Both the position numbers and the translations under genes were made by a program. From an uncultured delta proteobacterium (GTDB lineage: Bacteria; Myxococcota_A; Polyangia; Fen-1088): a stretch of DNA of 64,000 nt. This document shows, piece by piece, positions 30,959-36,135 of this stretch. The first letter of the stretch is position 1. Each line of letters starts with the position of its first letter. The notes under the pieces are model-generated. The model saw nothing but the letters and a program-made list of their open reading frames with translations. It was not told the origin of the DNA and ran no database searches. Where the stretch lies: NCBI GenBank assembly GCA_963782545.1, contig CAWAKD010000001.1, forward strand, positions 8,118-72,117, written 5' to 3'.

Positions 30959-31828
30959 ATGCGTGCCCTGAAGTCAAAGCGCGCAGGGCTGGTGTTCGTG
31001 GCGGCGGCCTACGCCACGGCGCTGTTCGCGGCCCTTGCCGTCGGCCACGCGCTTTCCGGCATCCATCCCATCTGGGTTGCGGCCCTGGGCGACATTGCCG
31101 CCACCCTGGTCGTGTTCGCCTTCAGCGCCGCGCTCGACAACTCCAGCGTCTACGATCCTTACTGGAGCGTGGCGCCCTTGCCGATTGCCGTCTATTGGGC
31201 GGCTATCCCGCTGGCAAGCGATTTCGGCCCGCGCCAGCTCCTGGTTCTCGCGTTGCTGGTCATCTGGGCCGCGCGTCTCACCGCCAACTGGGCTGTGCGC
31301 TGGCGCGGCCCCGCCGACGAAGATTTCCGCTACGTCGAAATCCGCGCCAAGACCGGCAAGGGCTACTGGCCCGCGAGCCTGATATCCATCCACATCCTGC
31401 CGACGGCCTGGGTCTTCTTGGGCCTTTTGCCCATCTTCCCCGCCCTGGTTCGGCCAGGTTTCTCCATCGTCGACGTCGCCGCCGCGCTGGTCGCCGGCTC
31501 GGCCATCGCCATCGAAACCCTCGCCGACCTGCAACTGCGCCGCTACCTTCGCTCGCCCCACGACCAAGGCGGCATCCTCGCTTCGGGTCTGTGGTCGCGC
31601 TGCCGGCATCCCAACTACCTGGGGGAGATCCTCTTCTGGTGGAGCCTGTTTCTGTTCGGCATGGCCGCCAACCCCGGCTGGATCTGGTCGATCGTCGGAC
31701 CGATCTCCATCACCTTGCTGTTCGTGTTCGTCAGCGTGCCCTGGATGGACCGCCGCATGATCTCCCGCCACCCGGCCTGGGTCGCGCACGCGAAGAAAAC
31801 CCCGGCGCTCTTGCCTTGGCCGCGCTGA
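30959..31828 (+). CDS. DUF1295 / steroid 5-alpha-reductase-like polytopic membrane protein
   Basis: ...LWSRCRHPNYLGEILFWWSLFLF... C-terminal signature shared by steroid-reductase/ICMT-like enzymes. Multiple TM helices. Starts 5 nt after the SDR stop. Confidence 0.8.
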   Translation: MRALKSKRAGLVFVAAAYATALFAALAVGHALSGIHPIWVAALGDIAATLVVFAFSAALDNSSVYDPYWSVAPLPIAVYWAAIPLASDFGPRQLLVLALLVIWAARLTANWAVRWRGPADEDFRYVEIRAKTGKGYWPASLISIHILPTAWVFLGLLPIFPALVRPGFSIVDVAAALVAGSAIAIETLADLQLRRYLRSPHDQGGILASGLWSRCRHPNYLGEILFWWSLFLFGMAANPGWIWSIVGPISITLLFVFVSVPWMDRRMISRHPAWVAHAKKTPALLPWPR

Positions 31829-31833
31829 ATTAC
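31803..31833. repeat. Direct repeat copy A (26 bp perfect, 31 bp with 1 mismatch); partner at 36105-36135
   Basis: CGGCGCTCTTGCCTTGGCCGCGCTGA(A/T)TTAC occurs at both sites. Here it encodes the last codons (..ALLPWPR*) of the DUF1295 gene. Confidence 0.8.
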
Positions 31834-32197
31834 AGGCGTCGAGGCCCGGCACTTGGTCGCCTTGGATGGTGTCTTCATCGCTGCTGCCGCCGACGTCGTC
31901 GAGGACGACGGTGAGAGGCAAACCCGCTTCCTCGCCGACGACCTCGCCGAGCCGGAGCCGGCCTTAGGTGGCTGGTGTCGCTCCTTCTACGGCCCCCCGT
32001 GTCCCTCCATCAACATCTGGTCCGGCGTCGCTTCTTCGCCGGGAGGGGCGGCGGTTTCGGTGGGGGCGGTGCCGTCGAGCAAGACCTCGTCGAGGCCTTC
32101 GCTGGCGAGGCGCTGCCGATGCGGTTCTGGAAAACGTAGGACTTGGCGTGTTCAGCATCCCGTTTCGCATCGACCAGGCCACGCCTTCGCTGCGCGC

Positions 32198-32522
32198 ACT
32201 GATGAAGAAGTATGCCCAGGTTCCCATGGATCTACCCGACGCGGGCGCGTGTGAAGAACGTCCCAGCCTCCCCTGCTCGTTCGACGGAAGCCCGGAACTT
32301 CCCTTGCTGGGCCTTCTCGGTGGCTGTCCCGGGCCGGGAACAGAATTCACCATGGCGGTCACCTTTTCCCAAGGCTGCGCCACCCATCTCTACGCGAACG
32401 GAGTGCCCGATTACGCCACCTCTTGCTACGTACCGATCCTCGAGTCCTCGCGGTTCGAGTGCATCGGCCAGAGCCCATGCTTGGGAATGAGCGCTTCCAC
32501 GCTCGCACAAATGGCGCCATAA
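32198..32522 (+). CDS. Possible small Cys-rich hypothetical protein
   Basis: Only the 3' part of ORF 31968..32522 has coding-like GC3 (MKKYAQVPMDLPDAGACEE...CYVPILESSRFECIGQSPC...). No family recognised. It could be a gene remnant. Confidence 0.3.
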
Positions 32523-32553
32523 GGCTCGTTGCGCCCGCGTCTGTTAGCATCCC

Positions 32554-32739
32554 TTGCGCAGGAAGAGCAACCGCCTCGAAGCCTTCAGCGATGGCGTGCT
32601 GGCCATCATCATCATCATCACCATCACGGTGCTCGAGCCGAAGGTGCCGCGTGGCGCGGGCCTGGCGACCACGAGCGGCTTGAGCCGGCAGGACAAGCTC
32701 TTGCGTGAAACGATGTCCTCGCTATCATGGCCAGCGTGA
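32554..32739 (+). pseudogene. N-terminal fragment of a TMEM175/DUF1211-family channel gene
   Basis: RLEAFSDGVLAIIIIITITVLEPKVP carries the R-x3-F-S-D TM1 signature. Similarity stops after about 35 codons, and the remaining TM helices are absent. Confidence 0.55.
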
Positions 32740-33020
32740 ATTGCGGCGCCCTCATCTTCACCGGCCATGCATTCGCCCGAATGTTTGCCAGGGCCGTAAC
32801 ACCGGCCGAAGTGCGGGCGGTCATCGACCACGGCGAAACGATAGCGGAATACCCGGACGACAAGCCGTATCCCAGTGCCCTTCTGCTGGGGATCGTCGAC
32901 GGGCGGGTTCTGCATGTTGTGGTCGGCCATGACGCCGGGACCGAACAGTGCTACGTAATAACGGTGTACGAGCCCAACTCGGAAAAGTGGGACCGTGCCT
33001 TCAGAAGGAGGAAGACTTGA
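32727..33020 (+). CDS. DUF4258-domain protein (putative toxin)
   Basis: IFTGHAFARMFARAVTPAEVRAVIDHGETIAEYPDDKPYPSALLLG..DGRVLHVVVGHD....CYVITVYEP is the typical DUF4258 layout. Confidence 0.75.
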   Translation: MASVNCGALIFTGHAFARMFARAVTPAEVRAVIDHGETIAEYPDDKPYPSALLLGIVDGRVLHVVVGHDAGTEQCYVITVYEPNSEKWDRAFRRRKT

Positions 33021-33244
33021 TGACTTGCCCAATTTGCAAGCACGGTGAAATCGCGCCTGGGCACACCACGATCGCGATCCAACGCGGAGAATCCACGATT
33101 ATCCTCAAGGGTGTCCCAGCCGGCATCTGCGACAACTGCGAGGAGTATCATCTTTCCGAAGAGGTCGCGCTGAAGGTCTACGCCGTGGCTGACTTGGCCG
33201 TGCGCTCCGGCGCCGAAGTCGAGATCCTGCGCTTCGCCGCGTAG
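33020..33244 (+). CDS. YgiT-type zinc-finger protein (MqsA-N-terminal-like, putative antitoxin)
   Basis: CPICKHGE...VPAGICDNCEEYHLSEEV (CxxC...CxxC). AGGAGGAAG lies upstream, and ATG 33020 overlaps the upstream TGA by 1 nt (TGATG). Confidence 0.8.
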   Translation: MTCPICKHGEIAPGHTTIAIQRGESTIILKGVPAGICDNCEEYHLSEEVALKVYAVADLAVRSGAEVEILRFAA

Positions 33245-33474
33245 CCGGTACGGAAGACCCGACCCAGGCTTCGCGCCTGGCATGGTCTCTGGATGGCTCG
33301 GCGAAGACTGCGCGACTTGAACGCACTCGGAGCTTGGCCTTGGGTACCTCCCACGCTCGAAGCCACCGTGCCAACTCAGAATTCGTGACCCGCAGGGCGT
33401 GTGCATAATGTCATTCGGTGAAGGGAAAATGGCTCTTGTTCCGACTAGGCTCCAGACTTGACTCATGAAGAGAC

Positions 33475-34946: not shown

Positions 34947-34965
34947 TCTGCCACCTTGGTGTTAT

Positions 34966-35214
34966 TCAGAACGTAGACTCCCTCGCGGCGATTCTCGAAG
35001 GAAGCGGATTCTTGACGCCCACGCGCAGTGCAGCCTGCACGAAACACCAGAACACGAACTTCGCACACCAGGCCTGTCCAAGTTTGCTGTTAGCCAGCCT
35101 CTGGTATTCGTCGATCCTGGGCCCACGATTGTTGTTGGCGGTTTCAAAAACGCCCCGCTTCGCCTCGGCCAAGGCGATTTCGACAGCGACCTCCGCAACA
35201 CTCCTGCCAGTCAT
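34966..35214 (-). pseudogene. Truncated CHAP/TIGR02594-like cell-wall hydrolase fragment
   Basis: AEAKRGVFETANNNRGPRIDEYQRLANSKLGQAWCAKFVFWCF carries the catalytic-Cys context (WCA.FV). The ORF ends after 82 aa, before the His/Asp half. Confidence 0.45.
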
Positions 35215-35269
35215 ATCGTTCTCCTAGCTTGAAGCGAATCTCTTGTGGGTGGAGGGAAAAGTCAACCGT

Positions 35270-35359
35270 GCTGGCCGCCCGCCGCTTGCACAGGACCGCC
35301 TCGCCGTCCTGCCTGACCACCGCGTCAGGCTGACCCTGAAGCGTCCCTGGTCAGAGGGC
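35270..35359 (+). mobile_element. Relic of an IS91-family (Y2) transposase C-terminal region
   Basis: AGRPPLAQDRLAVLPDHRVRLTLKRPWSEG resembles the conserved ...RPP.A..RL.....GRV...LKRPW.DGT... block of IS91-family transposases. Only about 30 codons remain. Confidence 0.45.
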
Positions 35360-35530
35360 GAGGTTGGCACCCGACCGACACGGCTTAAAGCGCGGCGGCG
35401 AGCAGCAGCAGGATGGAGATCTCGTGAACCAGCGACGCCACGTCCGCGCCCGACAGCAGGGTGGGAGTGGCTCCTAGCCCTGAAGCGGGCTAACGTTGCT
35501 AGTCCACCCCATCGGCCATACTCCTAGGTC

Positions 35531-36091
35531 ATGCGACCCCTTCGGTACTCCATCAACGTTACCTTGGACGGGTGCTGCGATCATCGTGAGGGGATCGCGG
35601 ACGAAGAGCTGCATCGTCACGCGGCCTGGAACCTCGACCAGGCCGATGCCCTCCTGTTTGGCCGGGTGACTTACGAAATGATGGAGGCAGCGTGGCGGCC
35701 GTCGGCGCCGACGGGCGCCTGGCCTGATTGGATGGAGCCCTGGATGGAACCCTTTGCGCGGACCATCGACGCGGCCAAGAAGTACGTCGTGTCGAGCACC
35801 CTGGACCGGGTCGATTGGAACGCTGAGATCATCCGCGGGGATCTGGGGAAGGCCGTCGAGAAGCTCAAGCAGGAGTCGGGTAGGGGACTGCTCGTGGGCG
35901 GCGTGAAGCTCCCGCTGGCGTTGGCGGAGCTGGGATTGATCGATGAGTACGAGCTCGTGGTGCATCCCAGGCTAGCGGGCCACGGGCCGACGTTGTTCGC
36001 GGGGCTATCGAAGCCTGTCGACTTGAGGCTCGTGAGCCGGCTGGAGCTCGGCTCGGGGGCGGTGGCGATGCGGTACGAGCCGAGACGGTAG
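35531..36091 (+). CDS. Dihydrofolate-reductase-family protein (RibD C-terminal domain type)
   Basis: MRPLRYSINVTLDG...LLFGRVTYEMM..W.......KYVVSSTL......AEIIRGDL..AV..LK.E.G..LLV.GG..L...L...GLIDEYELVVHP...G.G..LF is the family pattern. Confidence 0.8.
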   Translation: MRPLRYSINVTLDGCCDHREGIADEELHRHAAWNLDQADALLFGRVTYEMMEAAWRPSAPTGAWPDWMEPWMEPFARTIDAAKKYVVSSTLDRVDWNAEIIRGDLGKAVEKLKQESGRGLLVGGVKLPLALAELGLIDEYELVVHPRLAGHGPTLFAGLSKPVDLRLVSRLELGSGAVAMRYEPRR

Positions 36092-36104
36092 CCTTTCATG
36101 GTTG

Positions 36105-36135
36105 CGGCGCTCTTGCCTTGGCCGCGCTGATTTAC
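36105..36135. repeat. Direct repeat copy B; partner at 31803-31833
   Basis: Same 26/31-bp sequence. Here it is non-coding on the plus strand and overlaps the stop codon (36132-36134) of the convergent PP2C gene. Confidence 0.8.

Follow-up and report, generated by a model that had tools for sequence, protein, structure and literature searches.

A mosaic gene island bracketed by a duplicated gene tail at the convergent DUF1295/PP2C junction of an uncultured Polyangia bacterium

The DNA analysed here, called the window throughout, is a stretch of 64,000 nt from an uncultured delta proteobacterium of the Polyangia (GenBank assembly GCA_963782545.1, contig CAWAKD010000001.1, positions 8,118 to 72,117). 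Between two convergent genes in the window, one for a DUF1295 membrane protein and the other for a PP2C-type Ser/Thr phosphatase, lies an island of 4,276 nt (31829–36104, no strand assigned), a patchwork of intact foreign genes and fragments that stands between two exact copies of the last 26 nt of the DUF1295 gene. The comparison with relatives gives good support to an ancestral state in which DUF1295 and PP2C stood tail to tail, and into which 4.3 kb was inserted with a duplication of the DUF1295 tail. As to how the DNA came in, we lean, tentatively, towards a recombination scar in an insertion hot spot, made by host recombination in a process that can be described as 3'-end displacement, and not towards a self-mobile element.

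The repeat pair and the empty junction

Two exact copies of the 26-mer, CGGCGCTCTTGCCTTGGCCGCGCTGA, and no more are present in the window, at 31803–31828 and at 36105–36130, both of them on the plus strand, and no match to it was found in 100 dinucleotide-preserving shuffles of the window (none expected by chance). This is as the original prediction had it, including the agreement of four of the next five bases (ATTAC on the left, TTTAC on the right). With a repeat finder the pair grows to 37 nt at 92% identity (34/37), 31803–31839 against 36105–36141. Along the pair, the 26 exact positions are followed by 11 nt, ATTACAGGCGT in the left copy and TTTACCGCCGT in the right, of which 8 match (chance P ~0.002), and then by unrelated sequence, and the left edge is abrupt. 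The 26-mer was not found in the other 170 loci compared. Three matches of an 18-nt core of the repeat to IMG/VR viral contigs did not extend and are put down to chance, and no dif/Xer-like structure or terminal inverted repeats were seen in the 26-mer by inspection.

The left copy (31803–31839, plus strand) is the working 3' end of the DUF1295 gene, encoding ...TPALLPWPR and the stop as predicted, followed by one spacer base, a TTA that mimics the PP2C stop, and 7 nt more. The right copy (36105–36141, plus strand) consists of a displaced, non-functional 26-nt DUF1295 tail, 1 nt, and the true PP2C stop with the last codons of that gene, and this layout, TGA-T-TTA-PP2C, is exactly the ancestral one of the empty junctions in the relatives. 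The exact right copy ends at 36130 and the PP2C stop is found at 36132–36134, so that the overlap between repeat and stop that had been described applies to the extended 37-nt repeat, and not to the 26-mer. The mismatches are unevenly placed: of the free positions, 0/26 are mismatched in the right copy and 3/11 in the left one (P ~0.0003–0.03 under equal neutral drift). The coding part of the pair is identical and hence uninformative on synonymous divergence. An independent Logan contig (L001), with a DUF1295 protein identical to the one in the window, reproduces the left junction from the body of the DUF1295 gene through the 26-mer and into the island.

Both flanking genes are intact. The DUF1295 gene (30959–31828, plus strand; PF06966, E 1.7e-47) has the left repeat as its last 26 nt, stop included, and its C-terminus, ...KKTPALLPWPR and stop, is the same in the relative L002. 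The PP2C gene (36132–36902, minus strand; PF00481/PF13672, E ~1e-13; NF033484, E 3.5e-47) runs convergently with it. Relatives were the loci around DUF1295-protein relatives from GTDB genomes and JGI metagenomes, onto which the proteins of the window were mapped. The nearest ones available are ~78–80% identical in DUF1295 and ~84% in PP2C, and the gene that abuts DUF1295 in the relatives has 71–84% amino acid identity to the PP2C of the window.

In eight Polyangia metagenome contigs (L082, L085, L086, L088, L089, L092, L093 and L094) the tail-to-tail junction of the two genes is empty, with the aligned ends 9–58 bp apart, and the upstream order of an EBP-like gene, an SDR gene and DUF1295 is kept in these loci where the contig extends that far. 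The stop codons of the two genes even abut in L093 and L094 (TGA-TTA). The alignment of the window to L002 and L082 breaks at 31819/31829 and is picked up again at 36132/36145. It follows from the empty junction of eight relatives that an insertion accounts for the 4,276 nt lying between the repeats, and the tail-to-tail ancestor and the reconstructed empty site of the original prediction are borne out by the same junctions. In the public runs, one contig skips from 31781 to 36144; it comes from distant organisms similar to L085 and aligned at conserved blocks only, and this sole candidate for a closer relative with an empty site was rejected. The runs that contain the organism itself, with a contig depth of only ~1–3x, gave no high-identity excision or empty-site joint.

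Other insertions that carry gene tails

The DUF1295/PP2C junction, about 60 bp long, is an insertion hot spot, as L002, L091 and L084/L095 have inserts at other positions in it. The largest is found in L002, the closest genome relative, where a 4.85-kb cluster (10868–15716) codes for sigma70/DUF6596, YCII, AHSA1/Glyoxalase and AHSA1 (AHSA1/SRPBCC proteins) and BrkB, with no mobility gene in the insert. It is bracketed by two PP2C tails that both read G-T-R-R-stop, and still 7 of the 15 nt differ, all five terminal codons being synonymously recoded. The displaced tail, CTACCTGCGCGTCCCGG, starts six bases past the L002 DUF1295 stop and agrees with the true PP2C tail of L085 at 17/17 positions, a match that outscored every random segment of the window. 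The working PP2C gene at the far end of the insert terminates with TCAGCGTCGGGTTCCGG, and the following 35 nt of it are again identical to L085. Because the displaced tail matches the true tail of L085, it seems that the insert arrived in L002 together with an orthologous PP2C tail from another lineage and pushed the native one aside. The entry point in the junction is not the same as in the window.

The insert in L091 (3803–4765) is a lone gene of the RibD_C family, to which a gene of the island also belongs, different from the one in the window (31% identical) and on the opposite strand. Its stop overlaps the DUF1295 stop, and the same family at the same hot spot may be a coincidence. In L095 (5344–5481) and L084 (1079–1225) the junction holds a near-perfect hairpin of 138–147 nt (-85 kcal/mol, z = -11.4) with CACAGAGG repeats, perhaps a terminator that works in both directions, or else a small mobile element of palindromic form. 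In 158 loci where the DUF1295 3' end is complete, the gene's own 26-nt tail never recurs within 10 kb, and so, as far as these loci tell, nothing points to an element family with the end of the DUF1295 gene as its regular target. Further length differences of 1.3–4.6 kb were observed at other gene boundaries nearby, window 29592–29622 against L002 4073–8656 and L082 7379–8665, and window 26018–26044 against L082 708–3836; gene-tail repeats at these places are chance-level matches only.

A companion island is found in the same window at the glgC gene. Its repeat is 168 nt long with 95% identity and consists of a left copy (12189–12356, plus strand), made up of the last 126 nt of glgC and 42 nt downstream, and a displaced right copy (17540–17707, plus strand). 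The enclosed 5.2 kb (12357–17539) hold an MNT-HepT toxin-antitoxin pair just inside the right copy (16544–17440, minus strand) and otherwise poorly coding DNA. The nine mismatches of the repeat are scattered, and the coding ones are synonymous in 4 cases and non-synonymous in 2 (P ~0.04–0.07 under neutrality), which suggests that the two glgC tails diverged while functional in separate lineages. The glgC orthologues, at 85–88% nucleotide identity, have unrelated flanks in every relative fetched. The statement that the two islands are of the same design is correct in outward form, a direct repeat of a gene tail and no recombinase in the open reading frames (ORFs).

Common to the three independent inserts, at DUF1295 and glgC in the window and at PP2C in L002, is that the inserted DNA carries the end of the resident gene, and that the native end is an orphan at the far side. 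For two of them, glgC and L002, the copies resemble gene tails that grew apart, while still in use, in separate lineages.

Content of the island and spread of its genes

Judged by its sequence, the island is a mosaic of separately derived, sharply bounded pieces and not one element. Its GC content is close to that of the window, 63.3% as compared to 64.8%, and composition alone would therefore not flag it.

The pieces nearest to the left repeat are fragments. An internal part of a PIN-domain (VapC-type) toxin gene (32106–32243, plus strand) covers residues 54–99 of 137 with both ends absent, has 93% amino acid identity to the protein P0123 (PF01850), and had been overlooked in the original prediction. 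It is followed by a fragment homologous to the 110-aa hypothetical protein P0122 (32238–32519, plus strand; tblastn 81% over 94 aa, E 2.6e-39) and by the predicted 5' fragment of a TMEM175-family gene (32534–32666, plus strand), with a leader of ~20 nt and ~37 codons (PF06736, E 1.9e-6). Including the leader, this fragment has 82% nucleotide identity to L002 4175–4301, a TMEM175 gene between amt and the EBP-like gene. Such an orthologue-level identity suggests a source inside the clade, or else rearrangement of local DNA. The interval between amt and the EBP-like gene is only 30 nt in the window.

Two intact genes come next, as predicted. A DUF4258 gene for a putative toxin of 97 aa (32727–33020, plus strand; PF14076, E 2.9e-20) is adjacent to and co-oriented with a gene for a YgiT-type zinc-finger protein of 74 aa, a putative MqsA-like antitoxin (33020–33244, plus strand; TIGR03831, E 3.4e-10), and the stop of the first overlaps the start of the second by 1 nt at 33020. 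In both gene layout and family signatures the two resemble a type II toxin-antitoxin (TA) system, and we regard them as a putative one.

The middle part of the island contains a 142-aa ORF of coding-like composition (33475–33903, plus strand; GC at third codon positions 0.76) and a 167-aa ORF with an N-terminus like a lipoprotein signal, ...LVALPAC... (34443–34946, minus strand), both without a match in Pfam, NCBIfam, PHROGs or PADLOC. The labels of a 5'-truncated nucleotidyltransferase and a frame-broken lipoprotein, used in the original prediction, found no support in the same databases. The truncated cell-wall hydrolase did: an endolysin-like N-terminal fragment of 82 aa (34966–35214, minus strand) matches positions 3–56 of 132 in TIGR02594 (E 4.1e-5) and endolysin PHROGs (E 6e-4). 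The proposed IS91 transposase relic is at most a possible one, 30 aa (35273–35362, plus strand) that match positions 339–368 of 509 in the IS91/ISCR (rolling-circle) model NF052416 with E 0.015; the tblastn matches of this segment are weak (plasmids) and it is absent from the Pfam scan. The last gene, predicted as of the dihydrofolate-reductase family and found to be an intact RibD_C/dihydrofolate-reductase-family gene of 186 aa (35531–36091, plus strand; PF01872, E 2.5e-14), ends 13 nt before the right repeat.

A six-frame Pfam scan of 31800–36135 returned DUF4258, TMEM175 and RibD_C only, and no integrase, resolvase or transposase domain, in line with the prediction that the island has no integrase. 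Neither was a recombinase found among the window ORFs scanned, which cover most, not all, of the window and include those of the glgC island. No gene remnant of an integrative and conjugative element (ICE), an integrative and mobilizable element (IME) or a phage was detected in the island by the six-frame scan and PHROGs, where the only matches are the endolysin-like fragment and YgiT, and PADLOC gave nothing in the window proteins searched. With matches of these kinds only, and with viral-contig matches at chance level, a phage or satellite origin was rejected. Paired attC cores (RYYYAAC...GTTRRRY) were absent from the window, L162–L171, L002, L181 and L182 in a simple pattern test, not the covariance model of IntegronFinder, and a reading as an integron, or as a cluster of attC sites lacking an integron-integrase (CALIN), was rejected on the lack of core pairs in the island, in the related TA and RibD_C loci and in L181/L182. 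The ends of the island, ATTACAGGCG... and ...CATGGTTG, are not inverted repeats. A transposon or insertion sequence (IS) was rejected on this ground, on the length of the duplication (26–37 nt, as compared to 2–14 bp), and on a transposase trace that amounts to the match with E 0.015.

The intact genes of the island are found in many other places. An identical YgiT protein is listed in 85 collection blocks, in contexts as varied as katG/metXW, AbiJ and toxin-antitoxin-rich arrays. The DUF4258/YgiT block (32675–33287) has 91–94% nucleotide identity to the loci L162–L171, in other genomic contexts, with the same pair present in L162, L163, L168 and L169; in several of the ten loci the DUF4258 gene is cut, at differing 5' points. 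The RibD_C block (35375–36096) has 93–94% nucleotide identity to L164, L165, L167 and L171. In those loci the TA and RibD_C blocks stand in other order and orientation, and without the 26-mer. The identity at third codon positions is 0.95–0.99 for YgiT and 0.83–0.91 for RibD_C, as compared to 0.64–0.74 for the core genes of the window against their nearest relatives, from which it follows that these genes were exchanged long after the lineages split.

The spread of the RibD_C gene is the wider one, with ~8,000 homologues at 85–95% amino acid identity and source names from at least 5 phyla (Dormibacteraeota, Alphaproteobacteria, Gemmatimonadota, Chloroflexia and Actinomycetota). Against the long contigs L181 and L182 (6001–6561 in each) the identity is 90–92% at the nucleotide level exactly from ATG to stop, with unrelated flanks. 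The gene looks highly promiscuous, moving as a gene-exact unit. On L181, a contig of 5.5 Mb, a tyrosine recombinase gene (7805–8734; Phage_int_SAM_4 and Phage_integrase) is located 1.2 kb downstream of the RibD_C homologue, amid small co-oriented genes, and the pattern test gave no attC-like sites around the recombinase and RibD_C region. The near gene-exact spread of the RibD_C gene and the TA pair among unrelated soil bacteria may outweigh the repeat in importance.

Elsewhere in the window, tandem 294-nt repeats were observed at 50546–53128 in the gene of a 1,805-aa secreted protein, the N-terminal part of which is, by eye, like a subtilisin-type protease. There are also 24-nt GGN-type repeats at 40371–40610 in the gene of a 744-aa secreted protein, and a run of proline codons at 37330–37460 upstream of a fatty-acid-hydroxylase-like gene.

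Origin of the island and comparison with known systems

What can be read directly from the data is the repeat itself, the ancestral site in its empty state, the foreign and patchy content and the lack of recombinase genes, and from these we infer the enzymology of the insertion and the order of events. In the ancestor, the stops of DUF1295 and PP2C would have been one base apart, tail to tail. Foreign DNA would have entered 26 nt upstream of the DUF1295 stop and brought its own copy of the junction, consisting of the last 26 nt of DUF1295, the spacer base and a PP2C stop region, in which the PP2C part had already diverged. The left junction would then rebuild the DUF1295 gene, and the native 26-nt tail would be pushed to the right end, as an orphan beside an untouched PP2C gene. 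Two ways of joining are conceivable. A circular molecule may have recombined once within the 26 identical nt (Campbell type), or one end may have paired homologously and the other been joined illegitimately (homology-facilitated illegitimate recombination). Later the cargo would have been overwritten and eroded repeatedly, leaving the TA-like pair, the RibD_C gene and short fragments. A circular form, if present, would read ...CCTTTCATGGTTG + 26-mer + ATTACAGGCGTCG..., and the empty site would join 31828 to 36131.

Host recombination is suggested as the joiner by the lack of a recombinase in the island, and it is favoured further because there are three inserts without a recombinase, with insertion points that differ between the window and L002. 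The recurring pattern is one of inserts that bring the end of the gene and push the native end aside, and host recombination accounts for it no less well than a lost integrase would. The sharp joints between pieces of differing origin imply that illegitimate joining is frequent here.

Several points weigh against this. An identity of 26 nt lies at the lower limit for a RecA-type crossover. The L002 duplicate, 17 nt with 8/15 identical, cannot have been the site of a homologous crossover, and would need an illegitimate join, or else a crossover placed in the conserved block beside it. The right junction (36080–36230) was uncovered in the three low-depth runs that contain this organism, and no donor, circular form or close relative (>~80% amino acid identity) was found. 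A sliding-window comparison of DUF1295 and PP2C with the relatives showed no imported tract, at a low power given nearest relatives ~80% identical; an imported tract in either gene was rejected, there being no discontinuity in the identity. It was also considered that a long diverged PP2C tail might continue past the left repeat, and this was rejected since beyond 37 nt the match is not distinguished from random window segments (P = 0.16), whereas the same test was highly significant for the L002 remnant. Finally, direct repeats of a gene 3' end, with a block of identity and an abrupt edge, are also a classic signature of site-specific integration.

The last point leads to the main alternative explanation, which we consider possible, although not probable, namely that the island is a decayed site-specific integrative element of the kind called cis-mobilizable elements (CIMEs). 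The element, at first an ICE, an IME or a prophage whose integrase was of the tyrosine or serine type, would have targeted the DUF1295 3' end, and the integrase and transfer genes would later have been deleted, leaving attL and attR around cargo in part left over and in part acquired afterwards. Its attP would have carried the last >=26 nt, that is at least 26 nt, of the gene and would read ...CATGGTTG + 26-mer + ATTACAGG..., and the remnant could be mobile with a related integrase in trans. The anatomy is that of a textbook att site, with a direct repeat from a gene 3' end, a restored gene, one abrupt and one fading edge, and a TA pair and debris inside; remnants that keep attL and attR are a recognised class (PMC5704250), and the recoded PP2C tail of L002 could equally be an element-borne replacement. 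Yet a recombinase remnant was found in none of the three islands (window, glgC ORFs, L002), the genes carried by L002 are ordinary chromosomal ones, the tail of DUF1295 is repeated at no other of the 158 loci, the inserts of the relatives sit at differing positions in the junction, and the intact genes of the cargo are known from other places where these repeats are absent. The direct repeats do derive from the target sequence, but no internal integrase was found, and no reuse of the att site in the other loci compared. For the same reasons, and with repeats of 26–37 nt here against 168 nt at glgC and an island that is a mosaic, the original prediction that gene tails serve as the attachment site of one recurring integration mechanism is not demonstrated.

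A local event is distinctly unlikely. Here slippage, or the filling of a staggered break, would have doubled a junction piece of 31–37 nt on the spot, and the neutral gap opened between two intact gene ends would later have caught foreign fragments by end joining. This accounts for two intact genes around a heap of unrelated, sharply jointed fragments, in a short convergent junction that would tolerate only insertions that restore the gene tails. The mismatch asymmetry of 0/26 against 3/11 (P ~3e-4 to 0.03), however, is better explained by a crossover of related sequences from different sources than by local duplication and decay, and the 168-nt glgC repeat with its mostly synonymous differences and the recoded L002 tail are left unexplained. 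Rolling-circle capture of the IS91/ISCR type would be a special case of host recombination at the junction, in which an over-replicated circle with a junction piece was rescued by homologous recombination there, and we hold it for very improbable. It has in its favour the 30-aa match to the ISCR transposase model at 35273–35362 and many weak tblastn matches on enterobacterial conjugative plasmids, with one annotated as a transposase in Sandaracinus, but the match is under any curated threshold and missing from the Pfam scan, neither oriIS nor terIS ends could be identified, the relic lies inside the island with the RibD_C block between it and the repeat, and nothing comparable is found in the glgC or L002 islands. 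Least of all do we believe in an assembly artefact, in which some circular or foreign piece of small size, with the same 26-mer, was worked into the chromosome contig at the repeat. The contig does come from an assembled metagenome, and the right junction is the one uncovered in the three runs examined; against this, the left junction stands in the independent Logan contig, the orphan tail is in the exact ancestral context of the relatives, and a repeat of 26–37 nt is shorter than the final k-mers of usual assemblers.

The DUF1295/PP2C locus is a natural example of how accessory DNA can enter a very tight convergent junction with both genes undamaged, and it comes with the empty site, three alternative occupants and the junction sequences in hand. 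If host recombination is indeed the cause, gene-tail repeats around islands are not automatically the att sites of a lost integrase, and small integrase-less islands in myxobacteria may mostly be recombination scars. It can even be imagined that convergent tail-to-tail junctions in Polyangia are landing pads for recombinase-free 3'-end displacement, which would also be a route by which gene-sized modules like RibD_C and DUF4258/YgiT spread between distant soil bacteria, a generalisation that we consider unlikely.

Among known systems, the elements at the 3' end of fda in Streptococcus thermophilus have direct repeats of ~27 bp. CIMEs are remnants of ICEs and IMEs that have kept attL and attR and lost the genes for integration and transfer (PMC5704250). 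The island shares with them a short direct repeat from the 3' end of a conserved gene that is left intact, the lack of an internal integrase, and decayed cargo with a TA-like module. Kept repeats without recombination or transfer genes are, however, equally true of a recombination scar, and no parental or co-resident ICE or IME was found in the island or at the DUF1295 tails of relatives. Unlike CIMEs, the island is not known to have a related integrase-bearing element at its site, with none found at the 158 DUF1295 loci, it contains no ICE, IME or phage remnant, and the pieces of its cargo have separate histories.

Displacement of 3' ends by homology-facilitated illegitimate recombination was proposed for Rhs, CDI (contact-dependent growth inhibition) and type VI secretion system (T6SS) effector-immunity arrays (PMC5361080, which cites de Vries & Wackernagel 2002, Prudhomme 2002 and Meier & Wackernagel 2003). 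As in those arrays, there is an incoming copy of the end of the resident gene, a native end that has become a downstream orphan, and no dedicated recombinase, and mainly synonymous differences are possible, as in L002 and glgC. In those systems it is the conserved core of a polymorphic toxin gene that is involved, with diversification of the toxin, whereas here the genes are of a housekeeping type, the repeats are 17–168 nt, and the junction is a convergent one.

In complex class 1 integrons with ISCR1, a duplicated 3'-conserved segment flanks ISCR1 and the captured genes, and a circular intermediate rescued by homologous recombination has been proposed. The likeness lies in a direct duplication that brackets captured genes and in the possible IS91-family relic inside the island; the differences lie in a transposase trace of 30 aa at E 0.015, with no ori or ter ends identified, and in the lack of an integron and of attC sites. 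Integration hot spots between core genes are usually ascribed to a double crossover in the flanks, which leaves no repeat. As in the hot spots of pan-genomes, the same core-gene interval holds differing accessory DNA in the window, L002, L091 and L084/L095, often without mobility genes, but unlike in the usual ones the insertion event is marked here by a gene-tail duplication. The island adds one more case to a known kind, that of integrase-less islets which sit in a hot spot and bear a duplicated gene tail as their mark, and it is a fairly ordinary scar of horizontal gene transfer.

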